A DNA stretch of 64,000 nt, from assembly GCA_043228905.1 (NCBI GenBank), contig JBHGNT010000018.1, positions 4,340,001-4,404,000 on the forward strand, given 5' to 3'. The notes below the pieces were generated by a model. It made no database searches. It saw nothing but the letters and a program-made list of their open reading frames with translations, and was not told where the DNA came from. The position numbers were made by a program, and so were the translations under genes. Positions 4,306 to 59,728 of the stretch are shown in pieces; positions within the stretch are counted from its first letter, which is position 1; each line of letters starts with the position of its first letter. The stretch is from Azolla caroliniana. Lineage: Eukaryota; Plantae; Polypodiophyta.

Positions 4306-4376
4306 GATAGTTGTCCTAGTGGTAAGGCAATTATCTTGTATCTTAGAGATGCAATGTTCAAACCTTGCTTGCACCC
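4306..4376 (+). promoter_or_regulatory. tRNA-like A/B-box module in the U3 of element C 3' LTR
   Basis: GTCCTAGTGGTAAGGC ... GCAATGTTCAAACCTTGC; a better-preserved copy is at 7216-7287. Confidence 0.6.
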
Positions 4377-4713
4377 CTCTGTATGAACTCAAGTGCCACT
4401 AGGCCTTAGGAGGCTTATTTGCTAAGTGTATGTGCAATGTTGCACATCCTTGGTTTATTCGTGTCACTCAGTTTCACACCGTAGCCGAAAATCGTCACAA
4501 CATCCACCCCCACCAAACCCGCACATCCTCCAGTATGTGCCAAGAAAGGTGAAGAGGTGAGATCTTTGGTAACGGTGATCAACCGAGTTCCTCCGCACGC
4601 TCGTCGACCTTGTCTGACTTCGTCTTCCACTTCGAGTATGCCCAATCTTTCCAACTGAACCACCGTAGCCACCCGATCCACCATATTCGGCGCTCACACC
4701 TTCTTCCCCGATG

Positions 4714-6609
4714 TCATCGATCTGACCGCTCACACCTTGTAGTAGATCTACTGAACGATGTCATCGATCCGACTGCTCTTCCTTCGTCCACCGCGTGTGT
4801 CCTTCGATTGGACTCCTGGCCACTCCTCGCGCTCACCGTCTTCAACTGGGTGTTGTGGATCGTTCGTGTTGATCTCCGATTATGCCAGGTTTGCCCTTGT
4901 CCGGATCGGTCTCCGTCGATCGCTTCTTGGCTTGGTTGGCCTTCGTCTGCATTCGCATTTCGCCGAGTTGGGCTCGACCGATTGATTCTGGCCGGGTCGA
5001 CCCCCTTTTGGATCGGGATCATCCGATCGATTTCCTCCGAATCAAGTTTCGGCCGGGTCGGCCCCGGTCGATCATCTCCCATGTGGTTCTTCCTTCGTTC
5101 GGGCCAGAATCCTGGCCGGATCGTCTTTCGGTTCGACCGGTTCTCGACTCTTCCTTCCTTCCCGCATGCCGCCTTTCCTTTGAACTCAACTGCGACTTCA
5201 TCCTTGGCCTCCTCGTCGGCCACATCCTTCCCTCCGTGTATGTTTGCCTCGAGCCATATTTTCTCCTCTCTGCCACCTCCTTTATCTTCGGTCTTATGTC
5301 GACACACAGTCTCGACTGCCGAAGTCTTCAGAACCAGTGTGAAGGAATCCCTTCGTTCATGCACATTTACCTTGTCTTCCTCATCGCCCTTCCGGTTGTC
5401 CGTTTTTCCATCCACACATTCCGTCTCTTCGGTGTCACGTTGGGGCACGTGCACAACCGCCGAAGTCTCTAGTATAGGTGTGGGGATATCCTTTCTTCCT
5501 CGATCTTCTTCCTCCTTGTGTTGGGCCTTCGTCTTCTCGTCACCACCTTCCATCTCTCCGGTCTCACGTTGGCACACGACCGCAACCGCCGAAGTCTCTG
5601 GAAGAAGTGTGGAGAAAGTCTTGACATGGCTATCTGTTGTCGACTCGTTCATAGCCACCTCCGACTCGATGTTATTTGTCATGGCTACCTCCTCAATCTC
5701 TTCAGACTCAAACACTTTATCTCCCTCGATCATGCAAGATTTTCTCATGCTTGCACCTTCATCACCTGATGTTTCGTACACAATGCGTGTTCCGAAACAT
5801 TTATCCTCCCTCGAAGTGGCGTTCGCCGTCCTCGAGTCATCGGCCTCCTCCTTGGCCGTCGTTTCTTCGTAAGACAAGAAGGTGACTTGTTTCGCACCTT
5901 CTCTCTCAGTACCGTCATACCGAACCTTAGCCTTTGTATTGGCCACTTCATTAACCCGCATTTGTTGGGAGGCCTCTTTTTCCTCGATCACCATTCGCCT
6001 CGGTTTTGTCTCCCTTTTAAGCTTCATTTCTTTTGTTGGTGTCGCGTTGTTGCACCTCGTCCCTCTTCGATCGTCCCTCATGGGCAATCTTGTTGTCGTC
6101 GATATTCTCGCTCGCCCCTTATCGTGTAGTCGGCATACACTTTCCACCTTGCTCCAATCCTCAATGAGGCCCTTGGCACCGTCATCTTCTTCGAGTTTGA
6201 GGCCAATAGCCATCCTTTCCATTCGATCGATTGACTTCACAAACATAAGGACCTTATCGACCCCCACCAATCTTTGTTCCCGCTCCGAGAGTTGAGAAAA
6301 ACGACGCTCGAAGTCTACGAATGATTGTGTCGCGCCTTGGTGGGTCTTCGCTGATGTCACCCATTGGTCGAAGTTGCGTCGATCTCGCCCCTTCAGTCTC
6401 TCATAGCCATATTCCTCCAATAGAGCCTTCTCGAAAGTAGCCCACGAATCATGAGCTTCTAGAAGCTCTTTTACGTCTTTGAAGATCGGTTGAGACACCA
6501 CCTGACAAAAGTACTCCAGCCTCATAGCTTCGTCCACACCTCTTGAATCCATCTCCGCATTGTAGACTTTAAGAAAACTTTGGACTTCAGTGCTGTTGAA
6601 ATAGCTCAC
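4714..6609 (-). CDS. Gag-derived protein of element C: capsid-like N-terminus, acidic repeats, basic tail. The original ORF probably ran ~6703 to ~4500 and now has two stops
   Basis: The N-terminal ~165 aa align by eye with the Gag of B (FLKVYNAEM...FERRFSQLS...VLMFVKSID...WSKVESVC). Repeats ILETSAV..QRETEETE. A WWIGW motif lies in frame beyond the TGA at 4714. Confidence 0.8.
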   Translation of the reverse strand: MSYFNSTEVQSFLKVYNAEMDSRGVDEAMRLEYFCQVVSQPIFKDVKELLEAHDSWATFEKALLEEYGYERLKGRDRRNFDQWVTSAKTHQGATQSFVDFERRFSQLSEREQRLVGVDKVLMFVKSIDRMERMAIGLKLEEDDGAKGLIEDWSKVESVCRLHDKGRARISTTTRLPMRDDRRGTRCNNATPTKEMKLKRETKPRRMVIEEKEASQQMRVNEVANTKAKVRYDGTEREGAKQVTFLSYEETTAKEEADDSRTANATSREDKCFGTRIVYETSGDEGASMRKSCMIEGDKVFESEEIEEVAMTNNIESEVAMNESTTDSHVKTFSTLLPETSAVAVVCQRETGEMEGGDEKTKAQHKEEEDRGRKDIPTPILETSAVVHVPQRDTEETECVDGKTDNRKGDEEDKVNVHERRDSFTLVLKTSAVETVCRHKTEDKGGGREEKIWLEANIHGGKDVADEEAKDEVAVEFKGKAACGKEGRVENRSNRKTIRPGFWPERRKNHMGDDRPGPTRPKLDSEEIDRMIPIQKGVDPARINRSSPTRRNANADEGQPSQEAIDGDRSGQGQTWHNRRSTRTIHNTQLKTVSARSGQESNRRTHAVDEGRAVGSMTSFSRSTTRCERSDR

Positions 6610-6741
6610 TTGCTCGACTACCCTATCGATGGCTTGTTGGGCTTCATTTCATCTTTTCCCTTCTCTCAGAAACTCCATCATCCTTTTTGACATTGCCTTC
6701 ATGAGATATTCACCGTCTATCTTCGTCCTCCCCTGCTACTC

Positions 6742-6759
6742 TTCACGTCGGGTTCACCA
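6742..6759 (-). promoter_or_regulatory. tRNA-Trp primer binding site (same PBS at 12439-12456, 28714-28731, 37239-37256, 48556-48573, 59117-59134)
   Basis: Plus strand TTCACGTCGGGTTCACCA matches the 3' 18 nt of plant cytosolic tRNA-Trp (from memory), 4-5 nt from the LTR. Confidence 0.9.
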
Positions 6760-7215
6760 AATGATGTCGCGAAGATTCGCGCGTGCGTGTGCTACTCAAG
6801 CAACCGCCGGGGTCTTGGACTGGGGAGGATGTTTGCAGAATTATCGAAGAGATGACGATCAATGTAAGATTAGATGAAATTGGTTTACTTGAGAAGAAGA
6901 AAGATTGTACACTTGAGAAGTAGAAAAATATGAAGAAGATAAAGACAAATATAATTATATTGATGATAATGGTGTTGGTGATATCACATATTGAGTCCCC
7001 CTTACACAAGCCCAACTAGAGGCTTTTATAGGTCTTTCCATGCTTGTGACATGCACAAAACCATGGGCTAAAACCATGGTTTTGTGCACACGGTTTTGCT
7101 TATGTCATGCACAAACCATGGGTTTAGAACCATGGTTTTGTGCACATGGTTTTATAATGGTTGTTTCATCTATAATTCATATATGAAAAGTAAATACATA
7201 AAATCTACACTATAT

Positions 7216-7287
7216 GATAGTTGTCCTAGTGGTAAGGCCTAAAATCTTGTATCTTAGAGGTGCAAGGTTCAAACCTTGCTTGCACCC
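7216..7287 (+). promoter_or_regulatory. tRNA-like A/B-box module in the U3 of element C 5' LTR
   Basis: A-box-like TGTCCTAGTGGTAAGG, AGAGGT variable loop, perfect T-arm-like hairpin GCAAGG-TTCAAA-CCTTGC. Confidence 0.7.
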
Positions 7288-7489
7288 CTCTGTATGAACT
7301 CAAGTGCCACTAGGCCTTAGGAGGCTTATTTGCTAAGTGTATGTGCAATGTTGCACATCCTTGGTTTATTCGTCTCACTCGGTTTCACACCGTAGTCGAA
7401 AATCGTCACAACAGCGTCCACCCACGTAAGAGCCGGTTCATGCGCCTTTCTCCGATTCCGCCTATGGCCGGTTTTCTTCACGACATCCA

Positions 7490-12416: not shown

Positions 12417-13137
12417 CTTCCAACTCCTTTGCCGCATGTTCATGTCGGGTTCACCAATTATGTCGCGAAGTTTCGCGTTCGCATGTAGGAAGAGGCGGGA
12501 CCACGGGGGTCTTGGACCAAGGAGAGAGAGAGAGAGAGAGAGAGTTGCAGATACACAGAAAGAAAATAAGAGCAAGAAACAGGAATCTGATTACTATAAT
12601 CAGTAGCTTATGACTCGAACAGTTACAACCGGAAAATCGGTAATGGACCTGACACGGGGTCCTACTCACGCACACAAACGACAACCATTCGACTCGAAGA
12701 AACAAAAAGGGGGGGGGGGTAGAGAGAGAGAGAGAGCCTCTGTTGGAAGCACACGGCTGTCCACGAAGCAGAGGCAGCGAACTCCCGACACCCACAGAGA
12801 ACGACGATCGGAGGAGAGAGAGCTCGGCCCTCGGTTCTGCAGCAACACTTCGTCCTCGCCAACGCGCGATCCCTTTTCTTCCTTCTCTCCCTCCTTAAGT
12901 AGTTCCCTAAGGGGAGACCCTCCTTCCCTAGTCAAATCGCTTTATTCCCTGTCCCTTTCGACAGAGATACGCACAAATCCCCTAATAAATGTGTACTACG
13001 TAGTATTTACATCAGCCGACCTAATTATGAATTATGCACAAAATATCAATTCTCGCGTGCACCCACGTAAGAGCCGGTTCATGCGCCTTTTTCTCCGATT
13101 CCGCCCATGGCCTGGCCTATTTTCTTCACGACAGCGT

Positions 13138-17107: not shown

Positions 17108-17164
<57 letters not shown>

Positions 17165-22150: not shown

Positions 22151-24355
22151 ATTTTTCTTATTAAGGTTATTTTATACATGTTTCTAAGCTAAGCGCATCA
22201 TAACACATCCATTCCTTCTTGCTCCAAGTGCATATTTCATATTTGATACATCTTCATCAATCCATCTCTTGATCAAAACCCCAAAATTCCTCTCATGCAA
22301 GCATACATCTTACACTCTTTTCACATGACAAGTGCTAGGAGATGGATAAGAAGTTGTATCCTTTATGTTTTCCATGTTTGAGAGAAAGATCAAAGAAGAT
22401 AGGGCTTTGATAGAGATTATATGATGGAAATCAATTGATTTTTGGAGTGAGATGGTCAATTGATGGTGGTAATGCCACCCAATGTCTACAAATCTATAAA
22501 AAATGGAGATGATATGAAGAGGAATCCTTGACACGTTGAAGGTCTCATCACTTCAAAAGGTAGAAAAAGATAAAGAACCAAAGATCTCGAAAAAGGTCTA
22601 ACATGATACATCATGTTTACCCTTGAGCTTCCTATTATTGATGCATTGACATCAACGCGATCAAGAAAGTAGTAAGACAAATTCATCGATAGAGTTGAAT
22701 TTGCTCACTTCAACATGCTGATAATTGAACTCCTCTCCACATTCAAAACTTATTCAATCATGTAGATAATTTAGGGAAGTCAACTCTTCATTGCCACAAA
22801 GTTCTAATGTTCCTTCGAGTTGTTGACATGAAAGATTGGGAGATCTTGGGTGTTCTCTTGGAGGATATGACCACCAATAATGGGCTTGGAAAGTCATGGG
22901 ATGCAGTGAAGTGAGTGGGCAAATATTTCAACAAATGATATTGGTGGCTTTTAGATGACCAAATAGATGACTCTTGAATATTAGATGCAAATTTAACTTC
23001 AACTATTATAAAAAATAGTAGCGAGCCTACAAGTTTGAGAAAGTTCAATAAAAAAGGGTATCCAATCCAAGAATGCTAGTTAAAGACATTGTGGTAACTA
23101 CAAAAGTCATTAAAGTGAGGTGGGTGCAACCTAACACCCAATAGATGAAAGACAAGGCTTACATGGGTGGAGAGAAAGTTAAAGAAAAACTAGATGGATG
23201 TAGTTATGTTGGTAAGGTTGTCGAATGGGGACCATGAGGTCATGGCTTCAAACCCGACATTCCACAATGGCATCTAATAAATCAAGAAGATAGCTATGGA
23301 GTAATAGAAAGGTGAGAAAATTGGGTCTTGAACCCAATAGGGTTAGTACTCTAGCAACTTCCCCACTATGGACTAGAGTAAGGTAATTACAATAAAAAAA
23401 GGTAGAAAAAAACCAAGTATTAGACGTTACCTAGGATTGAAACAAAATATAACAAGATATTTAATTTGTAATTGGTTTTGGACAAGGTATGCGAGAAGGT
23501 TCATTCAATTGAAGAGCAAGTTGCGCACGCTTCTAGAAAAACCAATGTGGGGGTTGACAAAAGGTTAAATAGAACCAATGAGATGATAAGATATACCAAA
23601 TCCTCAACTAAGCACATAACAAATAAAATTCTAAGATTGTCAAGATAAATAAAGGTAATAAAGGCATATTAGAAGTGATTGTCGATGTGACATTTGGATG
23701 ATACCAAAGAGTGAGGTAGAATATCTATTTTGGAATCAGTTGTGGATGAGGTATGTGAAAAGGTTCAAGCTAGTGAAGAGCAAGCTATGGAGGTTAATGA
23801 AAGATGTGAGAGAACCAACAAGATGACAAGGAATATCAATTTAGCCTCAAACTATCACAAAGATAATGAAATATCTAAGACACGCAAGACAAAGATAATG
23901 AAATATCTAAGACAAATGAAAATTAATAAAGGGATCTTGCAATTAATTGTGGATGTCGCATCCAAGATGATGCACATGGTTTGTGGGAGGATGTCGGAGA
24001 AGGTTCAAGAAAAAAGAGAAAAGAGTTCTAAATCCACACATGTGAAAGAGATGTCACATGATATTTTCATGAAGGTAAAATAACGTGCCCGAACTATCAA
24101 TGATATCAATGAACAAATCAATATTGCCAACAAACTGAAGAGGTTCAAAAATATGTCCCTAATTTGTGATGGATGTGTATCCGTAGGAGTTGGGGGATGA
24201 ATGAAGGAAATACACATAGAGGGAGTGAAGAAAACATTAAAGCACAAATACTACATGTGATATGGTTGAGAAGTATTTGATGAACATGTTCGTTAATGCA
24301 AATAGGATGTCAAACCAATCACTCAATGGACCAAAATATAATCCACCTTTGAAAA

Positions 24356-25720: not shown

Positions 25721-27545
25721 CTTTTTTTTTCTTCTTCCAAAAAAGCATTTCTACTTTCATTAGTTAAGGAAAAGTACATAAGATAATATACAACTCATAT
25801 GTTACAAGCAACTTTGCATGGCTACAAGAAAACAACATGTATAAATGAAGCAACAAAGCCTCAGCACAGAATTACTCGACAGAATCCCCACAACATGAGC
25901 CTCATACAACCCACATTCAGCAAAGACACCCTCCAATCTCTTCACAATTCAGCACCCACCTCTATGTTTGGTACCCTTGGAGGAAACAGCCACCGGGGTG
26001 GCTGTTAAATCCACTTTGTATTGTCATCCACCATCTGTAGCATCGGAGAACCTCTCCGTTCAAGAAGGAAGCAGTATCTAGCTTCTTCACTCGCATCAGA
26101 GGGTCCCTGAAGGCTGTCAAAATTTCCTTGTAGTGTAGAAATAAGATTAAACCAAATCATCATTAAACTCTCAGCCGATGGGGTTCGCTTCCTGGTAAAT
26201 GACTCCTTGCACCTAGATTCCCACACTTGCCAAACAGTAAGGCCAACCACTAAAAACCAAATATCTATGTACTGTTCATGTATGTAGAATGAACCTCCTT
26301 GAGATGCAGGTTGTACAATTCCATTCACCACCTTTAAAGAATGACTATTTCCATTCCACCCATGAAACCATGCAGCTGATTCAATAGCTAACCAAACAAC
26401 TACAGCACTTGATACTTGAACTTCAACCCCGCATCGAGCTAGAATTCTTAAGCTCCTCGTCCAAACTTCTTGGGTTGGCGGGCAACTCTACAAACAATGT
26501 GCAATGTCCTCCAAACTCGCTCCACAATTACTCATGTCAGCCCTTTTCCCCAGCCACTCACTGGTTGGAACAACCTGATAGGTGATTAACCAAAAAAACA
26601 CCATGACCCACTCAGGGAGGGATGAGTTCCATATCCTGCTCCTGGTTTTATCCACGAAGATCGAGTCGACAACTACATGGGACCATTTGTTGAGACACTT
26701 CTCACGATGGAAGCATAAATGTCTTCCCAAGCGAGTTGAGTTGTCAAAGAAACCACGTGATTTACCTTCTTTGTCCCTCCACGTATATTCTGCTAGATCC
26801 CATTCTAAACACTCGAGTGGCTTGCCTTCAACTACATACAAGATCCAATCCTCCTCAACCTCAACGACTGATGGATTCACCTTCCATTTCTTATCGTCTC
26901 GTGCCACAATTCTAATCGGGGACCAACGAGCACTTGCAACTATTGATCCCAATTGGATGATCTTCCCATTCTTTCCTAGACCCTTGGCATTGATAAGTTT
27001 TCCAGCATCATCACATTGTCCGAACCATTCACCCTCTTCCCCATTACTAATAGGAACAGAGTAAACAACTTTATCGACTAGGTCAAGCATCTTCCTGCCA
27101 TTTCTGAACTTTCCCACGTCTTCATATAGTTTATCCCGATTAATAGGGGACAACTGCATCCAATTTGCCATTGACTGAATCCCAACACCATGCAATATAG
27201 CCTATCGCATACCCTTGCTCTGGCCAAGCATCTTCCCCTTTGTCAACTTTAAGGTCTCCTTCCACAATAGGGATTAGTGCATCCATTCAACATTAGTACT
27301 TGGACCTATACGGCTAAGATGCCCATGGAGCATACCCCACGCCTTCATCACTGACATACATGTGCGATGAACCAACCGATTAGATTGCCTAAGCTTTAAG
27401 TCGATACAAAATAGCCATGATTTATGTGGCTTCCAATGCGCACCAAGTCGTGAACTCCAAAGGATGCTCCTATTAAAAATCAACGTTTTCCATAACTCAT
27501 TTTCGGGCAGTAAGCTCCTTACCAATGTATATGGATAACAACACA
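25721..27545 (-). mobile_element. 5'-truncated L1-type LINE (ORF2 C-terminal part, 3' UTR, poly-A)
   Basis: IWNSSLPEWVMVFFWLI...C..EDIAHCL.SCP....VW (zf-RVT-like), WQVWESRC; A-tract appears as a T run at 25722-25730 on the plus strand. No TSD found. Confidence 0.8.
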
Positions 27546-29772: not shown

Positions 29773-29822
<50 letters not shown>

Positions 29823-35212: not shown

Positions 35213-35284
35213 GATAAGGTAGCATAATGGTAAAGTTGAGGTTTGGCTACGTGGAGGTACATGGTTTGAATCTTGCCCTATGCA
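35213..35284 (+). promoter_or_regulatory. 72-nt tRNA-like module in element D LTR (second copy 37878-37949)
   Basis: GATAAGG-TAGCATAATGGTAA...GGAGGTACATGGTTTGAATCTTGCCCTATGCA: A box starts at position 8 and the B box is at the T-loop position; T-runs follow. Confidence 0.65.
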
Positions 35285-35374
35285 CGTGATAAATATCTTG
35301 ATATTCTTATTTTATTTATTGGTGATAAATATCTTAATATTCTTATTTTATTTATTTATATGTAATTAAATCGG

Positions 35375-37222: not shown

Positions 37223-38091
37223 CTCCTTGCCACCCGCCTTCGCGTCGGGTTCACCAACTGTGTCGTGCCTTTCGGCTCCGGATCGTTGCGTGAGTCGGGT
37301 GGGAACCGCCGAGGTTTTGGACTAGGAGAAAGAAGAATATGAGATGAGGCTAGTAATGAATAGATTATTAGAAAGAGAGATAGAAATTTCGTGAATCCCA
37401 CGAGTGTATTGTATTCGATTAATCAATATTTAGATAAGAATATGTATTTAGATTGAAAGAAAGATATAAGAAACTTGTGAATCCCACAAGTATAGATTAT
37501 ATTATTTTCGTGAATCCCATGATTATATTAATCGGTTGGTGTTTTCGGAAATATATCCAATTTCCAAATATTTCACACGCCTATTACATTGTGCTCCCCA
37601 TCCTTATGTAGTGATGGGAGAGACTAAGCATAGCTACATGCTTTTTTTCTAATATGTTCATGCACACTAAATGTACATGTGATGCTTTTCTAATCCTTGC
37701 TTTTATTTGCTAAATATAGTGCTCATGCACGCTAGATGTGCACGAGTCACTTTTTAGTTGCTTGCGTTTTTTTCTATAAAATATTCACACACTCTAAAAA
37801 TGCACGATTTACCTTTTAATAAAGGTAGGCGCAAATAAAGGACTTATAGTTATTAAATCTATTTATAAAACACTAAAGATAAGGTAGCATAATGGTAAAG
37901 TTGAGGTTTGGCTACGTGGAGGTACATGGTTTGAATCTTGCCCTATGCACGTGATAAATATCTTGATATTCTTATTTTATTTATTGGTGATAAATATCTT
38001 AATATTCTTATTTTATTTATTTATATGTAATTAAATCGGTTATATTATTTTTACTTTTTCACGTAGTGTACGAAATACACTACGACAGCGT

Positions 38092-40860: not shown

Positions 40861-42677
40861 AGGGTTCCTGTGGGTTCGCCGGACAACATCCTAGCCCACG
40901 AGCATGCCAAGTGTTACCCGGACAAGTATGAATGTGTCAGAATCAGAAAGATGTTCGGAGTCAGAGTCAGAGTCGGATCGACAGTTCGGATCGATGACTC
41001 AGCAAATAGCCGAATAGGACATAGTTAGTTACGAAGTTTTGTAATTCTTGTTAAGTATAAGCAGTAGGATTTCTTAATGAGAAAAGACCTTCGGGTTACC
41101 TATAAAAGGAACCAAAGGCATTGTAAAAATCTATCGTTGTATTTAGTAATATAAAGTTTGGTTAGGAAATCTCTGTGTACGGATTGCTTCTTGTCATCTA
41201 TTTATTTCTGTCTAAGCTATATTACATAAGTCGCGATCTCGGTGTCTGTTATCACCGATAAGTTTACAGATAATTCGTATCTATTCGTCTAACCACAACT
41301 TCTTGATAGAACATTCGAGACGAACGTTCGTCTTATACTGTGTCGGTAAAATAGCAATTGTCGACCGAAAAACAGTCTTCGACTGTCAACACTTCTTGGC
41401 CCGAACAATCGGCTCATCCCACTGGAGGGACCTATTCCTAACAAACTCCCCCTTCACTCCTGTGGGAGGAGTCTGTTATTCATGTCCTCTATCGACAGAC
41501 TCTAATTCTGTCCATTGTTAGGTTCTTTGTCATCATGTCAGATCCATTGTTGTCAGTATGGATCTTCACAAGGGTAAACTCTCCTTCTTCTACTTTCTCC
41601 CGCAACCAGTGATACCTTCTTTGTATGTGCTTGGTCCGGTAGTGGTATATAGGAGTCTTGGCTAGGTGTATGGCACTCTAGCTGTCACATTGAAGCAAGA
41701 AATCCCTTTGCTTCATTCCCAACTGGCTGAGAAAGTTTCTCATTCAAATCAGCTCCTTCCCGGCCTCTACCACTATCATATACTCTTCCTCTATGGTCGA
41801 CAGGGCCACAGACTTCTACAGTCGTGACTGCCACAACACTGCTCCCCCTGCATAGGTCATCATGTACCTTGCCATGGATAGGCTTGAATCTACTTCCCCC
41901 GACATGTCCGAGTCGGTAAACTCTTCGAGCATGGGTTTTCCGACACCATACCGTAGGCATACCCTCGAGGTGCCTTTTAAGTACCTAAGTATCCAGTTCA
42001 CCGTTGCCGTGGCGTGGCCCGTCCAGAAGCGTAACATTGTGTAGACAAAAGATAACGTGAAAGTGAGAAAGGAATCACTAGGATTATGGACGGAAGAGAT
42101 AAAAGAGTAGAGATAGAGTAAATAGAGATTAACAAGATAAGATATAGAATGATATTTGAAAGGATAAAAGAGGTTTATAATTATTTGATGAAAGAGTTAC
42201 AAAATGGTTATGACCATCGTTGATCCTTCGAACTTTGTCTCAAAACAAGGCAACCGCTCTTCTCATTCTGGAGAGTAGATCACAATCTTCCCTTTTAGCT
42301 TTCGATGAGGGTAAGACTCGAACATCCGCCCTTAGAGTTGAGCACCACGACCGCCAAACTAGCTCATTTCGTTTATTGTCTTTCTTCTTGTCTATCTCTT
42401 TCTATCTTATGATATCTCTTATCTAATATAATTCTATTTGTTTTGATTGATATATCATACAATATAGTTCTTCGATTTCGATTCCTTCGATATCCTTGTG
42501 ACTACACTCCCTTCTCCTTTTATAAGAAGGGGATGGTTTTGCATGTGGGCCATATGTCACACATGCAAAGAGGGCTCTTGCATGTGTGCTATATGATGCA
42601 CATGTAGTACATTACATGGTTTAGACTATACAATGCTACTTCAAATAAAACAACACAATTTATTTTACACATATAAT

Positions 42678-42988
42678 GAGTATTGGTTAAATGGTGGGCT
42701 TTGAAGTTCATAATGTGGAGGTTGTTGGTTCAAGTTTCTGTTGAGTATTGGTTAAATGGTGGGCTTTGAAGTTCATAATGTGGAGGTTGTTGGTTCAAGT
42801 TTCTGTCGCCCATGTAATACAATATATGGTGCACATGTAGTACATTATATGTTTTAGGATTTAAACCATAGAATATTACTTCAAATAATACAAGACATAT
42901 AGTTTTATATATACTACAATATTAGGGTAAATGGTAAGGTTTCAAAGTCATAGGGTGGGGGTTATTGGTTCAAGTCCTCTCTTGTCCA
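42678..42988 (+). promoter_or_regulatory. Three tRNA-like modules in F 3' LTR (42678-42742, 42743-42812, 42916-42988)
   Basis: TGGTTAAATGG...TTCATAA...GGAGGTTGTTGGTTCAAGT twice (65-bp tandem duplication), and TAGGGTAAATGGTAAGG...GGTTCAAGTCC. Confidence 0.65.
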
Positions 42989-45900
42989 TGTAATATGATA
43001 GATATGTTTTATTTGCCTCTACATATAATGTATAATATTATCATAGTGTGTTGTTAATATTACCTTTATAAAACAATATCAAGATATATTTTATTTTAGT
43101 TACGTAAATTTATCTTTTTGTAGACTTTTAAGGTGAAGCTTTCGTACACAAGCACCCAATCCCCTTCTTCTATCTTCTTATGTCGAATTCGGTGAGTTTT
43201 ATCAAAACGAATTTTATTCTTTAGTCGAGCCTCCTTCAATTGTTGGGTTGCTAATTCTACATCTTCAGGCTAACACTCTAATTGTTGAATTCACAAAACA
43301 AGCAATTCTTCTCTGCTCACCTCCTCTCTCCATGGAATAGATGTCCATGACATAATTGATTCTTCTATTGGCATGATGGGCTTTTGACCAAGTATCAGTT
43401 CAACTAGCATATATCTTGTTACCGAACTATGTGTTGTCTGATATGCCCATAGTGCATAAGGTAACATGCGTGGCCAATCTCTTATTCTACCTTTACAACT
43501 TTTCACGATCGCCTTAACTATTGGGCTATGTCCTCTTTCAATCTTTCCATTAGCCTCTGGATTATATGCAGTTGTAAGCAATAATTTGACCCCTATCCGG
43601 TTGAAGAATTCTTTAGCTTCATCAGAATCAAGCTCTCCTCTATCTGCAATTATTTTACCAACACACCCATAACGACATATTACATCTTCTACTAAAAATT
43701 TACATACAGCTCTAGTTGTTTTTAGTCGTAGTGGTCTTCCTTCTACTTGGTTTGTAAGGTCTTCTCTTGCTAGTACTAAATATCACATTTGACCTTCCTC
43801 AAGTGGCATTGTCACTAGATTGACCATCCATTTATAATGCATTGATGATGAATATGTTGGTTTTAGCTCATCTCGATACCGAATAGTTGAATACCTCTGG
43901 CAAACCTCACAGGTTTCCACAAATTTCATTACATCTTTATACATATGTGGCCACCAATACTTTTCTTTCAACTTCATAAATGTCGCCCATATGCCTCTAT
44001 GTCCTGCCAACAAACTATCATGGAATTCAATAATTAATTTTCTCTTAATGTCATCCTTACAAATGACTCGAAGAGGATTTTCGGTTGGCCTTTTTGGACG
44101 CCTCCATAAATGCCCTTCATGTAAAAAAAACTTGAATGCCCGTCTTCGAAATTTATTTAATTGCTTCTTCGACCATGATGGGTTGGCTTCTTGAGTCTTT
44201 AGAAAATTTCCTATTTCTAACCATTGACCTTCATACTCCGTGTCTTTGAACATTATGCTTACATTAAACTCATCATGAGGCTTAATGGATACTTTATGAG
44301 CAACTTGATGGCTTGTAGTTGCCCAATTCTTATCTTTAGCTTGCATCACCCTTTCATTTATGAACCTTGCTCTTGACAACATATTTGTGACTGGGTTCTC
44401 TTTGCCCTTTATATGTCGTAATTCTGGGTTCATGGTTCTGATGTATGCAATCCACCAAAGCATTGCAATATCTGGTGTGGTGCAACTTGCTATCATTCCG
44501 ATGAGTGGCAGACAATCTGTTTCAACCACTACATCTACTCCGATCAAGTAATCTCTATATGTTTTTAATGCAATAAGCAAACCCCACAATTCTCGTTTAA
44601 CTTGTGCATAGTTTCTTTGTCTTTCATTTAATATCTTTGCTCCAAATCTGATAGCATATCGATGTTGGTCTTCATCTTCTTGGTTGATAACCCAACCGAT
44701 CCCAATTGGGCTAGTATCAACTGTCACTATAATTGTTCTTTCACATGTGTAGTCTAGTTGACGAAGAACTGGTGCTTTCAATAACGCTTCTTTCAATTGT
44801 TGAACAACTTGTGTATGTTCATCAGTCCAAATAAACTTCTTCCCTTTTCTTAAAAGTTGGTAGAGAGGATCTGATACATGTGCAAAGTGTGGTAACCAAA
44901 TATGATAAAACACACATGCATCTAAAAATCTTCTCACCTCTGTTACCGATTCGCAAACCTCCTTCATATTTTGTATTACGTTAATTTTGATCGGTGATGG
45001 CTTCCTCCCATACCAGCCACACATATGACCAACTATCAAAACTTCGTTCTGCCCAAAGCTTGACTTTGTTCATGATAGTGTCAAATGTAACTGCTCAAGC
45101 TTATTTAAAATACTCTCACAATCATTAATGTGATCCATCACAAACTTTCTGCAACCATTTCCATCCATAGTCTCATCTTTCTCTCTTTCTAAGCATCCCT
45201 TAATAGGAATATCATCTAAAAATGACATAGTTACCTTTGGGATGTACTCATGTAGAACTTTGTTCATTGCATTCATCATATGAGAAACTGAATTTGTCGC
45301 ACCTTGAGGTAGAGTGCACATCCGAACTAACCCAATTGGTGTTTTCACTGTTGTCATATTGCAACTATCAATTGGTCGTATCCCGAATATAGGTCTCCTA
45401 TAGAGTAAATCGCTCTCCCAGCAAAAGCTTCTGCAAATTCATCAACAATCAGTCCGATTCTTGCATTTCGGATTGTGACTTTGTTGACTAGTTGTAGATC
45501 TTGAATGAATCTTAGAGAACCATCTTTCTTTGGAACGGTGAACCATCGGTTGGAATATGGTGCGTTGGAAGGCTCTAAAATCTTCATCTTGACTTTATCC
45601 TTCAATAGCTCCAACAACTGAGGCAATCGAGCTCCTGGTACTGCAATAGGTTTAAAATTCCATGGAATATGAGGGATAGTAAATATTACCATTGACATGA
45701 CCACCTTTGGGTCTACACAACCAATCTCCTTAGCTTTGAATGCGAACGCTTTCCCATGCCTAAACATCATTTCTTTGAAAGTCGAGATCTCTGATTGTAG
45801 AAGAAATTCACCCCCTCCAATTCTCAAGGTATTTATTGTCTCCGAAGTGAAGTGATGTCCGGTCTTCTCTATTGGTCGAAGCATAGGCTCGGTTGCTATT

Positions 45901-46312
45901 GCCTCCATCTTCTCTTCGCTACCAATGGGCAATGGTGTTGCAGCAAGTTTGACCTTTTTGTCTACTGTTTTGTATTTTGTATTAAACATAAACTTTCTAC
46001 TTCTTCATATTTACAATTATACCTATCAATCTCGTAATACATATCAATTGAGTTTACATGTATCTTTCTAACACTCTCATCCTCTTCTTTCAAATACATT
46101 TCTAACTCTTCTATAGTATTTGCAAAAGAAAATTCGTCCATAACACTTTCAATGTGTTCTTCCATTTCGAGTACTCCATTATCCTTCAATGCATGTTGAA
46201 ACAAATTAACATTCTTTTACAAGTTCCTCTTGCATTCATACATCCTAGTCACACATATAACACCACTTTCAGAAATATGAAATGACTTATTCATATGTTG
46301 TAATGCCCTACG

Positions 46313-46375
46313 TGAGGGTCTTTTAATAATGGGACTATTGCAACCCTCATTTGCAACAGTCCTAATCAAAAACCT
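46313..46375 (-). promoter_or_regulatory. Homologous frameshift pseudoknot of F
   Basis: GGUUUU-UGAUUA, then a 12-bp stem GGACUGUUGCAA/UUGCAAUAGUCC; loop UGAGGG pairs with downstream CCCUCA. Confidence 0.72.
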
Positions 46376-49245
46376 GATTATCAAAATCATCACATTCTTT
46401 TGGTATCTAATGATCATGAAGCTCTTGCTTGTTTCTCTCATGATTTGGGCGAACTGTCATAAACTGTACAGTTCTTCGTCCATCTTGGCTTCGAATCATC
46501 GCATAGGTAGAACCATTGTCAAGGACTTTGGTCTCCATCCGTACCGCTATGATGTATGGTTGCCCCAAGATTATCCGATAGGTAGATCCTTGCTACACAA
46601 AGAAATGTTGATCTACCTCTATATCACCAATAATAACCTTTACATTTGGGCATGCACCAAATAAATCTTTGGTGACTGATGTGACTGCTTTTACGCGCCA
46701 ACCATATTGAGTATCAATTGGTCATTTACCTTTCCTGTAAAAATCAGCACTCATTATATTTATTTCAGAACCATGATCAATAAGTGCCATCACCGAGTCT
46801 GGAACATTTCCAATCTTCACATGATGCTCAGTAGTGGCTCTTGCCCAACATTTGCGAGAGTAGTGGCTTCTTGTCTCTATTGAACTTATCATTGAGTTTG
46901 ATGCATGTTGAGAGTCAACAATGATATTGTTCGACTCGTTGCTTACCACTTCATATGCCACCTTCGGATTTGTTTCTTTAACCTACTCATTTACTTGCTT
47001 CTTTCTTCGCACAATATCAATTATTTCATCATGAAATTCCTTTTTTGCAATACCTAACACTTCTCTTAGTGTAAATTCTACTTGACTATCTAGTATTCTT
47101 ATTTCTAAAATTTTCTTTAAATTTGTATCCTTTTCAATATCAGACATTAATTTGAATGAAGGACCAGATTTACCTTTTTCAACTTTTGCGTCCATCTCTT
47201 TTCTTTTGCTTTCTCTTGTTTCATGCTTTTTTGTTGAGCCAATCTCATCATCCGACCTTTTACTTTTTTCTTCCACTATCACCTCATGGTCTTGGTGTCC
47301 TGCCATCTAAGCATAGACTATCATAGCATCTACCGGAACATCCCATCGAGTATTTTTCCTTACAGAATCTCCAACAACACGAAGGTCTTCCATCTTCGTC
47401 TTTTGCTTTTGTGCGGAACCTTCTCCCAAAATGATGATCGGCATGGCGTGTCATCAAGACGCATTCCTGTCTTTGCCGAATAGTACATTGCAGAAGCCTT
47501 CTTTGTTTCAGCTTCTTCAAACTTAACCTTAACACCACCATCACCAAAGTTCTTTGTAAGTGGACTTCTAGTTTTAGTTAAGTAATTGTTACCATTTTTG
47601 CAATAGACCAAGTCTCAATTTTCCATGTCTTTATATTCCGCGCAATCGCATAATCGATGTTCGAGACTATCACACCACATGCATCGAGGTCGAAATGGTT
47701 CCTTGACCTCGAAGTCTGACCATTCTCAAGCTCTGCCACTTTAATTGTTGGATATTTCATACTTTGAACTACATCATCAAGCAAAGCCTCACTCTTAGTT
47801 CTGGTCACCTCTTGTTGTTGATGCACTATTTCGTGTGATGGTTCTCGACCAAGTCTTTGAACTTCCATGTTTTGCTCAAGCCGATTCGTGATTCCCACAT
47901 GTGGTATTTGTAGCATTGCGCCATTCCTTTCAATTCTTGTCATAAATTTATTACAAGCATTTGTTACCTCAATCCAATTTGCAGTTATACCATCCTCAGT
48001 ATTTGGTAACTCAAGCATAAGTTCCAATTCTTTTCTATATCTCTTGTCAATTGCCTACAAAAATAAAGCAACCTTTTGCCAAGACAAAGAATTTCTTTCT
48101 TCCGGCTTTAAGTGTCCATACAATCTATCAAACTCTTTTTTCGTGTCAGCCACAGATAACCCTTTATCTTCTTTTAAGATCCATTCATGGAATGAACGCA
48201 TAGTAACGCAAGAGAAATCCTCACGAGCATATTCAGAATGCATTCCAATCCAAACTATGCAATGTTTCTATTTCATAAATTCTATCTCTTAATTCCATGT
48301 CCACAAATTTATAAAAGTTTGCTATCATATTGGCATCATTCATACTAGACATTTCCATTTCATCATAATATATATTCACATACTTCAAAATATTTGTGCC
48401 ATCAAACATACCAATCTTCTCTTGGACTTCTCGTAAGGCATGAAATAATCAATCTTGATTCAACTTTTCAATAAACAACCTTACCGGATACATTGTACTC
48501 GTACTTGCCATGTTGATGTTGATCTTTACTTTAGATGTCTCTTCTACTTCCCTGTTTCACGTCGGGTTCACCAAATTGAGTCGTGGCGTGGCTCGTCCAG
48601 AAGCATAGCGTTCCACAGACAAAAGATAATGTGAAAGTGAGTAAGGAATCACTAGGATTATGGACAGAAGAGACGAAAGAGTAGAGAGAGAGTAAATAGA
48701 GATTAACAAGACAAGATATAGAATGATATTTGAAAGGATAAAAGAGGTTTATAGTTATTTGATGAAAGAGTTACAAAATGGTTATGACCATCGTTGATCA
48801 TTAGAACTTTGTCTCACAAGGCAACTTCTCTTCTCATTCTTAAGATTAGATCACAATCTTCCCTTTTAGCTTTCGATGAGAGTAAGCCTCGAACCTCCGC
48901 CCTTTTGTAGTGAGTTGAGCACCACAACCGCCAAACTAGTTCTTTTCTTTTATTGTCTTCCTCTTTCTATCTTATGATATCTCAAGTATCTAATATAATT
49001 CTATTTGTTTTGATTGATATATCATACGATATAGTTCTTCAATTTCAATTCCTTCGATATCCTTGTGACTACATTCCCTTCTCCTTTTATAGGAAGGGGA
49101 TGGTTTTGCATGTGGGCCATATGTCACACATGCAAAGAGGGCTCTTGCATGTGTGCTATATGGTGCACATGTAGTACATTACATGGTTTAGACTGTACAA
49201 TGTTACTTCAAATAAAACAACACATTTTGTTTTACACATATATAA

Positions 49246-49410
49246 GGAGTATTGGCTAAATGGTGGGCTTTGAAGTTTATAATGTGGAGGTTGTTGGTTC
49301 AAGTCTTCTCTCGCCCACATATAGTTTTATATATACTGCAATATTAGTGTAAATGGTAAGGTTTCAAAGTCATAAGGTGGGGGTTATTGGTTCAACTCCT
49401 CTCTTGTCCA
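49246..49410 (+). promoter_or_regulatory. Two tRNA-like modules in F 5' LTR
   Basis: Consensus-matching A box TGGCTAAATGG (49253-49263) with B box GGTTCAAGTC; second module TAGTGTAAATGGTAAGG...GTCATAA...GGTTCAACTCC. Confidence 0.68.
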
Positions 49411-52400
49411 TGTAATATAATATATATGTTTTATTTGCCTCTATATATAATGTATAATATTATCATAGTGTGTTTTTAATATTACCTTTATAAAACAATA
49501 TCAAGATATATTTTATTTTAGTTACGTATTTATCTTTTTGTAGACTTTTAATGTGAAGCTTGCGTACTTTACGACACCACTGCCCAGTGTTCTCTTCATG
49601 TATCAACTTATTGTTCGCACAGCAAAAGCTATGTCTAATCTCGTGCAGACCATAGCATACATTAGACTGCCGACGGTTGAGGCATATGGTACTTTCCTTA
49701 TCTCAGCCTTTTCTTTCTCCCTTCTCGGGCATTGCCTTGTATTTAACTTGCAATTAGTCGATAACACAGAGCCGATCGTCTTTTCTTCTGTCATGTTGAA
49801 TCTTTCTAGGATCTTCGTCACGTATTTCTCTTGTGACAACCACAACACTTTCTTAGTTTTGTCTCGAACTATGTGCATCCCTAAGATCTGTTTAGTCGGA
49901 CCAAGATCTTTCATGGCAAGCGACTTGCCTAGAGCTTTCTTCAAGCTTCTAATATTTCTTGTATCTTGACCGACTATCAACATGTTGTCTACATATAATA
50001 AGAGAATCAATAAATCACCTTCATCGTACCTTTTGACGAACACACAATGATCAGCCTATGTTTTCTGGAACCCATGTTCCACCATGAAGGACTCGAACTT
50101 CTTGTACCATTGGCGTGGAGCTTGTTTTAGGTCATACAAGCTTTTTTTCAGTCGACACACCAGATTCTCATTCCCTTTCTCCACAAAACCTTCAAGTTGC
50201 TCCATGTAGATCTCTTCATCCAACTCCCCGTGCAAGAATGCCGTCTTGACATCCAACTATTCAACCTCCACATCCATGCTAGCAGATATACTCAGAACAG
50301 TTCTAATGGATGTCATCTTCACGACTGGAGCGAATATTTCGTCAGAGTCGATACCCTTTTTCTGTTAGAAACCCTTCACCACAATGCAGGCTTTATACCT
50401 AGGCGCACTGTCAACTTCTCCAGTCTTCACCTTGTAGAACCATTTGTTCTTGAGTGCTCTCTTACTTCTCAATAATTCTACCAGGTCATAGGTGTAGTTT
50501 TCATGCAAGGAGTCCATCTCATCTTGCATCGCGTTTAGGCATTTCTCTCTGTGCTCGTCGACACTGGCTTCATCATAGCATTATGGCTCACCTTCATTAG
50601 TCAAGAGGATGTATTGATTGGCATATGTTGTTGGTGCTCTCCTTCCACTCGTTGTCGACTCTCGTTCGGGTGTCTCTCCCGACTCTCCTCTTTGCTTGGG
50701 TTCATATATGTCGATCGGTTTTTCAAGGTTGGACGACTCCAACTCGTATTCCTCGATCGACCTTAACAGCTCTGTCGACAATCATGGAGAGAGGATGAAT
50801 CGAACTGACCTTAACTGCCCTTTATATTCGACACCATTGTCGGTTCGGATAGCCTTTAACTTTCGACTCGACTCCCGTTCGGCTCTTGCCTAGAAATCCT
50901 TGAAGAATGACAATACTTGATCTTTTGACTTTAATACAAAAGCCCACAACTTCCAACTGTAGTCATTGATAAAGGTCACAAGTATTGTCCGCCTCGGTGT
51001 GACGAAGCATCTACATAGCACTCATCAATGGCATTTCTCTTCTCTTTGGTGGTCTAGAGTGGAATGTTGCTCTGTTCTACTTTCCAACTAAGTTGTCGAC
51101 ACACTTCTCTAGGTGCACTCCCTTTACCTCTGGTAGAAGCCTCTGGTCGGCCAACAAATGCAGTCCCTTCTCACTGATGTGGCCTACCCTCTTATGCCAT
51201 ATCTGTCCTGCCGAGTCAGTTGCCACATTCACTTCCGAGTTGCACAGTCGGGCTTGCATCATATACAATGTGCCTTCCTTCTGTGCTCAAGCCACTATAA
51301 GATTTCCTCAGTAGAACTTCCACTTGCCATTCCGGAAATTACCACTGTAGCCTTCGTCGTCCAGTCTTCCTATCGATATCAGATTCAATCTTATATCGGG
51401 GACGTGTCGAACATCCTTTAGAGTTAGCCGACACCCCGTCGGCCTCGTCAAGCAAACACTTCCGATTTCGGCTACCCTGCACTCCCCACTGTCACCCATC
51501 TTTACATAACCATGGTCACCGGCTATGTAAGTCAAGAAATACTCTTTTGATGGAGTTATGTGGAAGGATGCACCGGAGTCAATCGCCCAAGTGCATTCTT
51601 CGCTCACAAGGTTTGCACTTGTCTGTTCGCAAATGAACAACAGTTCTTCATTGCTCATAGCAATGGCTGAAGTGCCCTTTTCATCAGGAATCTTCCTGGG
51701 TTCAACACCATTACCGACACTTTTTTCCTTCCTCATGTGTCGGCAATCCTTCTGGAAGTGTCCACGTTTTCCACAATAGAAGCACACAAGCTTACCTCTG
51801 GACTTCAACCTGGCTTGAGACTTTTCTCTCCTAGGTGGACTTCTTTGCCAGTTCCTCCCTCTATCGATGTGTTGAGTCAAATTTGACTCCAACTAGACTA
51901 GAACACCCTTCTCCTTCCTTCTCACTTCCTCATTCAGGATGCTTGTCTTCACCGCTTGTAAAGACACGTTCTCCTCTTGACATGAGGTGCTGAGAGTAAC
52001 GACCAGGTTCTCCCAGCTATCCGGCAGTGTGCACATCAGCAAGATGGCCTGCATGGTATCATCGAGGGGAAACTTGGTTGCAGCAAGTTGATTCACAAGA
52101 CCTGACAGCTTCTGCCACATTTCGTGGGCATTCGTGTCGTTCGCCACATGCTAAAGGACACTTACATGGACGCATTGTCGGATGGTGGCCACCGCCTTTC
52201 TGTTGAGAATTTTCCATTCTGACTCTAATACCCCCGTGGGTATTCCTCCTCTATCAATCGGCTCGTACAGGTCTTTGACTATGAGAAAGTCCTCCATCTT
52301 TATCTTCCAGTCTGCATAGTTCTGAGAGTTCAGAACTATCATTCCTGGGAAGCCGCTAACACCTCCTTCCATGGTTGCACCTCAAGCTCTGATACCAGTT

Positions 52401-56268: not shown

Positions 56269-59200
56269 TGTCATGCCTTTCGGCGCCGGATCGTTGCGTG
56301 AGTCGGGTGGGAACCGTTGGGGTTTTGGACTAGGAGAAAGAAGAATTTGAGGCTAATCTAGTTATGAGTAGATTACAAGAAAGAGATATAGAAACTTGTG
56401 AATCCCACAAGTATAGATTATTAGATTTATTACTATTTAGAATCCTAATTACAATTTATCATAGATTGGAAGAGATAGATTATATAAAACTTCCTGAATC
56501 CCACGATTATATTAATTGGTGTTTTTAGGAAATATATCCAATTTCCCAAATATTTCACACACACACCCCCATTACATTGTGCTCCCCATCCTTATGTAGT
56601 GATGAGGGAGTCTTAGCAATCCATGCTTTTTCTTCTCTAACTATAGACTCCATGCTTTTCCTATAGATAGACTATATGCTTTATCTAAAGTGATCATGCA
56701 TTTTCTAACTTGTGCGTTTTTTATCAACTATAGTGTTCACGCACGCTAGATGTGCATGCGTAGTTTTTTCTTTTAGCATGTGTTTTCTTTTAACTAAAGT
56801 TTATCCTAGGTGAACTAACATTTCTATGTGGAACATCTACCTTTTAACACTAATGAAATGCTAGTGCAATGGTAAGACATTACAATCTTGCCCTACCCAT
56901 GTAATGCTTTTTTTGATATTTTCTTCTTCTTTTTTTCTTCATATTTATTCAATCGGTTATTTTATATTATTTTCTCATAGTGTACAAAATACACTATGAC
57001 ACTCGCTCCCTCCGAACCCGCACATCCTCCGGCATGTGCCGAAGTTGTCGGTGATTGTTAGCCTTCTCCATCCAATTGGTTTCGTCACTGGTCATTTTCG
57101 GTTGCCGGCTCTGTCCGGTCGCTAGTTTTCAGCTGCTTGCTCCACCCTGTTTCTGGTTACCGTCCCTCATAATTCTTCTTTACTTGTAGTACCCTCCGTT
57201 TCTCTCGCTATGTTGACTTTGTCTCTCCATTTTGAGCACAACCATTCTTTCCACCCAACCCATTTTCGCCATCCGATCCACCATAGTCTTCGTTCACTCT
57301 TTGCATAGTCATGGCTGATTGTCGCGGCTCCTCGTGCCCCTCTTGAGCATAACCATTCATGTCTTGTCAAATTTTCTTGGCCCGCTTGGTCCTTGTTATC
57401 CGTGGTAGTGCCTTTCCTTGGCCTCTTCCTTTGTTTATCAATGTCGATTTCTTTTCGAATCTCTGGTTGAGTCGGATTAGCTTCTTTTCGAATCGGTCTC
57501 GTCCGATCGTCTTTCGGTTGGATCGGCTTTCGTTCCAATTCATATTTGGCCGATTCGGACTCGGTTTATCGGTTTTTACCGATTCGGCCCCCTTTCAGGT
57601 CGGTTTCAACCAATCAGTTTCCGTCCGTATTTGCTTCCTTTTCCTCGTTTTCACCAGCCTCGACCAGATCGGTCTCATCTGGTCGGCTTTCGGTTCGAAT
57701 GATTTCCGTCCGCGTCGAACTCAACGAATCGGATTTTGTCTGAATCCACTTCTGCTTGCTTCAACTTTCGTTTAGACCGGAATTCCGGCCGGATCATCTT
57801 CCGTCCGAACCCACTTCCAGCTTTACATTCTTTGCTCCCACCTCCCGTCTCTCCGGTCTCACATTGGTTCTCAGACACAACCGCCAAAGTCTCTAGAATT
57901 AGTGGGTAGGAATCCTCGGTATTATCATCCTCCGTCGTTTCACCCATAGCCACCTTCTCGGTTATCTCTCCATCGTATGCATCGGCTTCGACCTTCCGTC
58001 TCTTTCGTCACCTTTTTTTTCTCTCCGCCACCTTCCGTCTCTTCGGTCTCACGTTGCCTTTCAGACGCAACCGCCGGAGTCTCTGGAATTAGTGATGGGA
58101 AAGTCTCAATGTGGTCATCCGACATTGATTCATCCATAGCCACCTCCGATTCGATGTAATCTTTTGCGGCGACCTCCTTAATCAAGTCCACCTCGCACTC
58201 TTTATCTCCATCAATTATGAAAGCATCTATTATGCTTACCTCTTTCTCATCTGAAGTCTCGAACACTCGTATCCCAAAATCTTCTTCTACACTTGAAGTG
58301 GTGTTCGCCACTCTTAGCTTATTGGCCTTATCCTTCGCCGTTGTTCTTTCGCAAGACAAGAGGGTAGCTTGTTCTACTCCCTCTCCCGTGGTACCTTCGT
58401 ATTGTATTTCAGCCTTCATGTCGGCTACATCATTTGTCCTCAATCAACCATCCTTCATGAGCCATGTAGTTGTTGACAAGATTCTCATCTTCCTCTCATC
58501 ATGTCTTCGGCATACCCTTTCAACTTTGGCCCAATCCTCAGTAAGACCGTTCGCACCGTCATCATCTTCGAGTTCGATCCCGATGTCCATCTTTTCCTTC
58601 CAATCAATCGATCTTACGAACATTAAGACTTTATCCTCCCCCACCAATCGTTGTTCCCGCTCCGATAGTCGAGCAAAACGATGCTCGAACTCTAGGAATG
58701 CTTGTGTTGCACTTCGGTGGGTCTTCTCCGATGCCACCAATTCATCGAACTCTCGCCGATCTCGTCTCTTCGATCTCTCGTAGTCATATGCCTCTCGTAA
58801 AGCTTCTTCAAAGGACCCCCATGTTGGGTTTTGTTGTCGTATCTTGTATATTCTCTCTTGTAACCCATCCGTGGTTACCCGACTGAAGGATATCACTTGC
58901 AATCCTTCCGGTATCCCAGATCGCATCATCTCCACCTTGTATTCACGTAGATAGTGTGACACATCATGTCTGTTGAATTGCCCGTTTCGTTGCACAATGC
59001 GCTCTATTGCCGACTTCATCTCCGACATCGCACGTTGCTCTCGTTGCATCCGCTCAATCATCATCATCATTATGCTCATCACCTCTTGTTGATTCTCCAT
59101 CTCCTTGCCACCCACTTTCACGTCGGGTTCACCACTTGTGTCGTGCCTTTCGGCGCCGGATCGTTGCGTGAGTCAGGTGGGAACCATTGGGGTTTTGGAC

Positions 59201-59728
59201 TAGGAGAAAGAAGAATTTGAGGCTAATCTAGTTATGAGTAGATTACAAGAAAGCGATATAGAAACTTGTGAATCCCACAAGTATAGATTATTAGATTTAT
59301 TACTATTTAGAATCCCCATCCTTATGTAGTGATGAGGGAGTCTTATCAATCCATGCTTTTTCTTCTCTAACTACAGACTCCATGCTTTTCCTATAGATAG
59401 ACTATATGCTTTATCTAAAGTGATCATGCGTTTTTTATCAACTATAGAGTTCATGCACGCTAGATATGCATGCGTAGTTTTTTCTTTTAGCATGCGTTTT
59501 CTTTTAACTAAAGTTTATCCTAGGTGAACTAAGCTTTCTATGTGGAACATCTACCTTTTAACATTAATGAAATGCTAGTGCAATGGTAAGACATTACATT
59601 AATAATATGGAGGTGCAAGGTTCGAATCTTTCCCTATGCATGTAATGCTTATTTTGATATTTTCTTCATATTTATTCAATCAGTTATTTTATATTATTTT
59701 CACGTAGTGTACGAAATACACTACGACA
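56269..59728 (-). mobile_element. Non-autonomous gag-only LTR element E, an older relative of D (LTRs 56269-57001 and 59139-59728)
   Basis: Perfect TSD GCGT; tRNA-Trp PBS 59117-59134; ORF fragments 58444-59121, 57940-58443, 57675-57953 and 57167-57538 are colinear with the D protein. Confidence 0.95.
59569..59640 (+). promoter_or_regulatory. 72-nt tRNA-like module in E 5' LTR (the 3' LTR copy at 56855-56900 is internally deleted)
   Basis: TAGTGCAATGGTAAGAC A box; GGAGGTGCAAGGTTCGAATCT B box. Confidence 0.72.

Follow-up and report, generated by a model that had tools for sequence, protein, structure and literature searches.

An outward-pointing, decayed tRNA-gene cassette in the U3 of Phygy-type LTR retrotransposons from Azolla caroliniana: a possible TFIIIC docking site

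RNA polymerase III (Pol III) promoters within long terminal repeats (LTRs) have previously been described for miniature elements, which they are thought to transcribe. The closest known system is Helenus (TRIMp3), a group of non-coding, miniature terminal-repeat retrotransposons (TRIMs) of 311-1263 nt with short LTRs, for which the sections of the report covered here give Selaginella as the only plant case (Kojima 2024, PMC10886601); the same sections also note a partial resemblance to a tRNA in 'not a few LTRs' of Repbase, although the analysis there is confined to TRIMs. Here we consider a 64-kb stretch of Azolla caroliniana DNA (assembly GCA_043228905.1, contig JBHGNT010000018.1, positions 4,340,001 to 4,404,000; the window), a nest of LTR retrotransposons in which several families of the Phygy type carry a decayed tRNA-gene cassette, pointing outwards, in the U3 part of their LTRs. 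From sequence comparison we judge the chances about even that this cassette is a docking site for TFIIIC that keeps the adjacent RNA polymerase II (Pol II) promoter open.

A scan of both strands with the textbook A-box/B-box consensus of type-2 Pol III promoters, allowing at most one mismatch and 43-48 nt from T8 to G53, gave 11 matches in the window, whereas 12 dinucleotide shuffles averaged 0.25 matches and never exceeded 1. Ten of them are the copies that a preliminary description of this DNA had named as tRNA-gene-shaped cassettes, so that both their geometry and their excess over shuffled sequence stand; the remaining match, on the sense strand, lies in the 5' LTR of element F (48938). 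All ten are present, but they collapse to five distinct modules, C, D, E, F-a and F-b, and the copies given as 42678 and 42743 are a perfect 65-nt tandem duplication. The host elements lie on the minus strand, as their primer-binding sites (PBSs) and open reading frames (ORFs) indicate, and the cassettes on the plus strand, making all five modules antisense. The scan placed the cassette of element C at 4305-4376 in the 3' LTR and 7215-7287 in the 5' LTR, and that of element D at 35213-35284 (3' LTR) and 37878-37949 (5' LTR), both with T at position 56. In element F, the 3' LTR holds F-a at 42677-42813, including the duplication (42677-42806), and F-b at 42916-42988; the 5' LTR holds F-a at 49246-49317 and F-b at 49338-49410, the latter 54/73 identical to F-a. 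The 5' LTR of element E has a cassette with consensus A and B boxes (59569-59640), whereas its 3' LTR has only a remnant (56853-56900, plus strand) that retains the A box and lost the variable loop and B box to a 27-nt deletion. The B-box form GGTTC(G/A)A attributed to these cassettes therefore does not hold for either D copy.

Each cassette sits between the LTR 5' end and a TATA-like box and points away from the latter, as had been proposed, with T8 at 191 nt from the box in C (5' LTR box at 7022-7031, minus strand, divergent from the cassette), 274 nt in D, 247 nt in E and 161 nt in F. The surrounding LTRs are as dissimilar as the preliminary description held: with the cassettes masked, only those of D and E align at length, and C and D share a single 23-nt match. 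Scattered insertions of a short interspersed nuclear element (SINE) are an unlikely source of these cassettes, as the cassette is inherited with the LTR, shared by LTR pairs and found at the same place and strand in eight further copies among the matches listed for sequences outside the window.

What is preferentially retained in these cassettes is the promoter boxes, while the tRNA fold is lost. Compared between families, the A box is 0.63 and the B box 0.74 identical, as against 0.44 in the anticodon arm, 0.56 across the variable loop and the 5' side of the T-stem, and 0.30-0.32 in the ungapped flanks. Each of 11 promoter invariants is present in 12-16 of 16 copies, and parsimony assigns 0.78 changes per column to nine box invariants versus 2.79 elsewhere (permutation p 0.00045). 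Because the families were discovered by motif, we also set five outside copies of C and D/E, assigned to families by the likeness of their LTRs, against the window copy: differences fell in 4/45 invariant cells and 72/215 others (p 0.0006), or 6/45 and 64/215 with D as reference (p 0.026), although the compared pairs share branches. The paralogues F-a and F-b have 11/11 invariants in common at 69% identity elsewhere (p about 0.02). Stem pairing, by contrast, is 56, 49 and 65% against 41% by chance, with no covariation, and the consensus fold, at -0.05 kcal/mol, reveals no conserved structure; the cloverleaf with paired stems of a functional tRNA gene is gone. The spacing of the A and B boxes falls within the 30-60 bp of type-2 promoters, with T56 in D and in the outside copy L045 departing from the consensus, and G18 to G53 spans 35 nt in 14/16 copies. 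All seven loose ends starting at 37906-37917 among those listed, which are not independent and have 126 further rows beside them, retain the core of the A box at unchanged spacing, with the arm between diverged. Preferential retention of the boxes over a decayed cloverleaf, as first suggested, is thus borne out.

The Rfam tRNA model found no match in the window or in two small stretches, ARAGORN at default settings called 0 tRNAs in the window and, at -ps80, it made a call in only 3/19 stretches; with no call from the default run or the Rfam model, tRNA ancestry rests on motif geometry. The T-runs that had been noted after the cassettes are not special, which leaves a terminator role unsupported: TTTT occurs within 40 nt at 47-60% of positions in the D, E and F LTRs, and C has none between B box and LTR edge. 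Oligo-T is absent within ~70 nt downstream in 4/16 copies and at chance level in the remainder, and in C and in element A, described below, the first TTTT after G53 lies at 205-685 nt, so that a transcript would exit the LTR.

Several observations concern the neighbourhood of the cassettes. The sense-strand tRNA-like segment of F (48874-48947, minus strand) lies ~150 nt downstream of the TATA-like box and is called 'Leu' by ARAGORN at -ps90; it has a counterpart near 42310-42370, a 7-nt indel between the boxes separates the LTR copies, and the likeness could be chance. Nested palindromes lie between cassette and TATA-like box in C (4131-4243 and 7041-7153) and F (42538-42604 and 49105-49171) and may be Pol II cis-elements. 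We rejected a bidirectional promoter in C, based on an inverted half-cassette on the minus strand at 7317 that is not retained in other C-family copies, and a long hairpin closing the B box, which fits some copies of C and of a further family, K, and fails for the whole alignment.

For copies outside the window, we scanned metagenome contigs with the PBS, which gave at least 119 loci (19/64 parts covered; numbered with an L here), 39 of them flanked by 300 nt or less. The retained set, among the matches listed, to which the counts that follow also refer, comprised 57 loci that have a Phygy-like LTR end and 350 nt or more upstream; these are not independent hosts, a single accession series supplying most of them. 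With one mismatch or none, six matches lay upstream of the PBS at a distance of up to 1 kb, every one antisense and 0 sense; L011 (two mismatches) and L074 (by family alignment), both with degraded boxes, raise the count to 8/57, three in C, two in D/E and three in K. All eight occupy the U3 place and antisense strand of the window modules. The cassette is optional, as was first noted for element B: it is present in 6/23 LTRs with a recognisable 5' start, two of these start calls being doubtful, and in 23 hand-picked negative LTR regions a relaxed profile search turned up no match above 21 nt. L079 begins as C does for its first 80 nt and continues into a different U3 body with no cassette. 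At E<1e-8, a profile derived from the cassettes had no matches other than Phygy U3 in the 297 kb searched. Public runs filed under four organism codes also have contigs with the D LTR and its cassette, and depth over the LTR has no spike at the cassette. In viral contigs the PBS had 0 matches, and a variable-loop/B-box motif had one, which lacked an A box and was judged unrelated by eye.

A gag tree of 32 rows, in which many unlabelled rows have unspanned LTRs, places cassette-bearing LTRs on three branches and none in a 14-row B clade. The cassette tree splits C and K from D/E and F (support 96/97), whereas the gag tree joins C with D/E (support 100/100); this disagreement hints at U3 exchange. 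Separately, the LTR of L021, only ~125 nt long, joins a C-like start to a K-like end, which suggests LTR-internal deletion or modular exchange.

In target-site pattern the host elements match the Phygy clade, as had been supposed. Six minus-strand elements of the window have one PBS in common, which we take to be of the tRNA-Trp type. The target-site duplication (TSD) follows an NCGN pattern, with GCGT on both sides of C, D and E and CCGT/CCAC around F. Element C (3855-7413, 3559 nt; PBS 6742-6759) has LTRs that are 97.4% alike (3' LTR 3855-4502, 5' LTR 6765-7413) and is nested within the 3' LTR of element B, whose 5' LTR (12461-13133, minus strand) yields no module by A/B scan or profile search. 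Element D (34596-38087, 3492 nt; PBS 37239-37256; 3' LTR 34596-35422, 5' LTR 37261-38087) is the youngest, having transposed very recently: its LTRs are identical at 826/827 positions. Element E spans 56269-59728 (3460 nt; PBS 59117-59134; 5' LTR 59139-59728) and element F 42005-49576 (7572 nt; PBS 48556-48573; LTRs 94% alike). F has a degenerate gag-pol in which Pfam recognises RNase H and an integrase Zn-binding domain; the closest named homologues of its pol are Riccia and Adiantum proteins, which, taken alone, would suggest a bryophyte, probably a moss, as host. No reverse transcriptase (RT) was found in C, D or E; each has a gag-like ORF without a Pfam match, and on sequence they are related non-autonomous families without pol. 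These long ORFs (C 4717-6648, D 35378-37321, E 57940-59172) have charged, repetitive tails. In the published classification, as far as covered, Phygy elements are non-chromovirus Gypsy elements of 7656-9968 nt with a polyprotein filling the interior, a 4-bp NCGN TSD and a tRNA-Trp PBS in 81% of members (Neumann 2019, PMC6317226); F, with its degenerate pol, falls just short of that range, and C, D and E, at ~3.5 kb, far short. We rejected RLG1 as the identity of C-F because RLG1, according to the part of its description covered, is a chromodomain element (PMC7466625). Elsewhere in the window, a 237-aa frame at 26488-27201 (minus strand) resembles by eye the C-terminal region of a non-LTR retrotransposon, without a Pfam match.

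How might such a backward promoter be of use? One captured tRNA gene, or the head of a tRNA-derived SINE, would have supplied the cassette, and U3 exchange would have spread it between lineages. TFIIIC may then bind its boxes and TFIIIB land ~50 bp upstream, between the cassette and the TATA-like box, where local nucleosome depletion or a barrier effect could result, with the cassette standing head-to-head with the Pol II promoter of the LTR. TFIIIC is described, in the source as covered, as relieving nucleosomal repression and positioning TFIIIB ~50 bp upstream (PMC11346459). Because the cassette points outwards, Pol III would not run through the Pol II promoter and, being antisense, it cannot make genomic RNA. 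TFIIIC docking fits best because fold and terminator are absent, the boxes are retained and the strand is antisense; the module being optional, and able to be partly degraded, belongs to the same picture. The reading is also favoured by the recurrence of place and strand in 5/5 window modules and 8/8 outside copies, although the C, D/E and F LTRs are otherwise unalignable, and by the same arrangement in the chromovirus LTR of element A.

A good deal weighs against it, however, and part of this would suit a passenger relic instead: an ancestral U3 would have picked up a tRNA gene or SINE head a single time, and the box pattern would reflect its SINE or tRNA past and our motif-based discovery. 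T56, which makes the B box non-consensus, stands in both LTRs of D, the youngest element, and in L045, and boxes are degraded in L074 and L011. In four runs C accounts for 58, 57, 51 and 59% of depth at position 56 of the D 5' LTR cassette, leaving ~41-49% that is not C, with reference bias possible. Variants at 15% or more occur in family D at 13/72 positions, 2/11 invariants and 11/61 others, so that family D has no excess box conservation, albeit in a weak test (contigs, 80% filter). Identity of the upstream flank within families, at 0.71-0.75, is not far below that of the boxes (0.82-0.85), with positions 20-43 at 0.65; 17/23 spanned Phygy LTRs, among the matches listed, have no cassette; and decayed pieces resembling tRNA are present beyond LTR U3 as well (window 23194-23266, L028 and L049). 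The families having first been found by motif, the cross-family tests are partly ascertained, and their pairs share branches. Even so, we consider the passenger account rather unlikely: family-assigned copies and the F paralogues still have the invariants while the stems pair near chance or modestly, the flanks have fallen to background between families, and a chromovirus and three gag branches agree in strand and place. Docking itself has to contend with reports that DNA methylation and histone H3 lysine 9 (H3K9) methylation impair TFIIIC or Pol III, on which evidence is mixed, and with a literature search that brought up no plant TFIIIC barrier study among the papers it listed. The A-B spacing is fixed although TFIIIC tolerates 30-60 bp, in the source as covered (PMC11346459), and the non-promoter positions T33, T36, A37 and G43-T47 are retained too, so promoter selection alone is insufficient.

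The retained anticodon-loop and variable-loop bases would suit an antisense Pol III unit, whose short or read-through outward RNAs, complementary to the 3' U3 and the end of pol, tune the element's own silencing or act as a decoy. Both boxes are present, the upstream flanks are AT-rich (0.64-0.84) and the LTRs of foamy viruses harbour Pol III small-RNA genes, according to the part of that study covered (PMC3993851). We nonetheless regard such a unit as distinctly unlikely, since the fold is not conserved and no terminator is maintained: transcription in C and A would run past the LTR, and other T-runs are at chance. Pairing with the primer tRNA would, for its part, predict strict antisense orientation, a U3 location, fixed spacing and retained non-promoter loop bases; 3' U3 RNA, as the tRNA complement, would pair with the D-, variable- and T-loop regions of the packaged tRNA and aid initiation or minus-strand transfer, and the U3 half of the bipartite Ty3 PBS offers a precedent in the portion of the literature covered (PMC5371799); a further one, for HIV-1 U3-R, is suggested by the title of a paper. 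This seems quite improbable. Positions 59-73 match the primer end expected from the PBS at 4-8/15 (null about 4), with 1/13 at p<0.05; position 36 is T in 10/13, at odds with the A that closes a Trp anticodon, should the primer be Trp; and the degenerate box positions 11-13 and 57, like positions 24-32, vary freely. A search for the primer tRNA gene in viral contigs and genome contigs found 0. The primer-pairing idea, the Helenus precedent, T56 in the youngest element and retention beyond the boxes are all points additional to the preliminary description.

Some loose observations touch these points. In the D depth, T56 and A57 are asymmetric, and one loose end suggests clipping of A57 copies. 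The decayed tRNA-like segment at 23194-23266 (plus strand; matrix score 23.1) is isolated, with no LTR context seen. L028 has, upstream of a Phygy LTR, a ~370-nt tandem repeat at 2244-3027 whose units each contain a decayed tRNA-Met gene of initiator type, and L049 a decayed tRNA-Arg(CCG) gene at 1150-1224, ~150-200 nt outside a B-type Phygy LTR.

Element A, on the plus strand, encodes an integrase and a chromodomain (PF00385, E 5e-14). Its 3' LTR, from 1029, carries a weaker tRNA-like cassette at 1032-1104 (minus strand), at the LTR 5' edge and antisense, and a TATA-like box at 1211 lies 114 nt from T8 of the cassette. A scoring matrix trained on 12 Phygy copies gives it 19.0, where shuffles of 297 kb yield 0.1 matches above 18; four other matches above 18 lie outside such U3s (window 23246, L080, L018 and L028). 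Its B box is consensus and its A box has two G-to-A departures. L063 has a U3 block 67% identical to that of A (score 17.1), making two copies in all. We regard this cassette as a lead to a second lineage, short of proving convergence. It is speculative, and in our estimate rather unlikely, that two distant Gypsy lineages, Phygy-type and chromovirus, independently recruited an outward tRNA-gene promoter as an exchangeable U3 module that would bring TFIIIC beside the Pol II promoter and keep the element transcribable inside methylated nests, a self-carried Pol III insulator against silencing. The A integrase had 0 loci in viral contigs. In L063 the block at 1384-1586, equivalent to window 1029-1230, belongs to an LTR that follows a Met-type PBS with a purine tract only ~25 nt away from it, a TRIM-like junction between two unlike LTRs.

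Our literature search, which took in few subscription papers and not Repbase, found, among the papers listed, no such cassettes described in Phygy or moss LTRs. Helenus shares with this locus, as far as its report is covered here, a tRNA-derived segment in both LTRs, conservation centred on the A and B boxes and a tRNA judged non-functional, and its origin too is ascribed to SINE2/tRNA capture (PMC10886601). Unlike Helenus, the elements here are 3.5-7.6 kb long with gag or gag-pol, and their LTRs, of 590-1130 nt, have a TATA-like box; moreover, in the Helenus consensus LTRs inspected the cassette is sense and fit to transcribe the element, whereas here it is antisense. The Cassandra TRIM likewise has an internal Pol III promoter inside plant LTRs, but in the account covered it is 5S-derived, drives the element transcript and is TRIM-sized (PMC10886601). 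For long coding elements with a reversed and optional cassette, some other use is needed. Foamy virus microRNA cassettes are A/B-box Pol III units in the LTR of a coding retroelement, with hairpins, terminators and proven small RNAs in the part of the study covered (PMC3993851); here neither hairpin nor terminator is conserved. Ty3, also a Gypsy element, has U3 sequence complementary to tRNA arms, in the form of short complements to the primer in the portion covered (PMC5371799), whereas our cassettes have whole tRNA-gene geometry and no match to the 3' part of the primer. Phygy elements share the 4-bp NCGN TSD and one tRNA-type PBS, whereas C, D and E are derivatives of 3.5 kb with no RT found, and the sections covered mention no LTR cassette (PMC6317226). 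In tRNA-gene (tDNA) insulators and extra-TFIIIC sites, A and B boxes likewise serve apart from tRNA output and, in the source as covered, organise chromatin (PMC11346459); those are yeast and animal host loci, with none shown in plant LTRs in the literature covered. If TFIIIC docks on the cassette, transposons would have a cis-encoded route to resist silencing, and families with and without the module, together with C56 and T56 subfamilies, would offer within one genome a natural test of tDNA-type insulation in plants.

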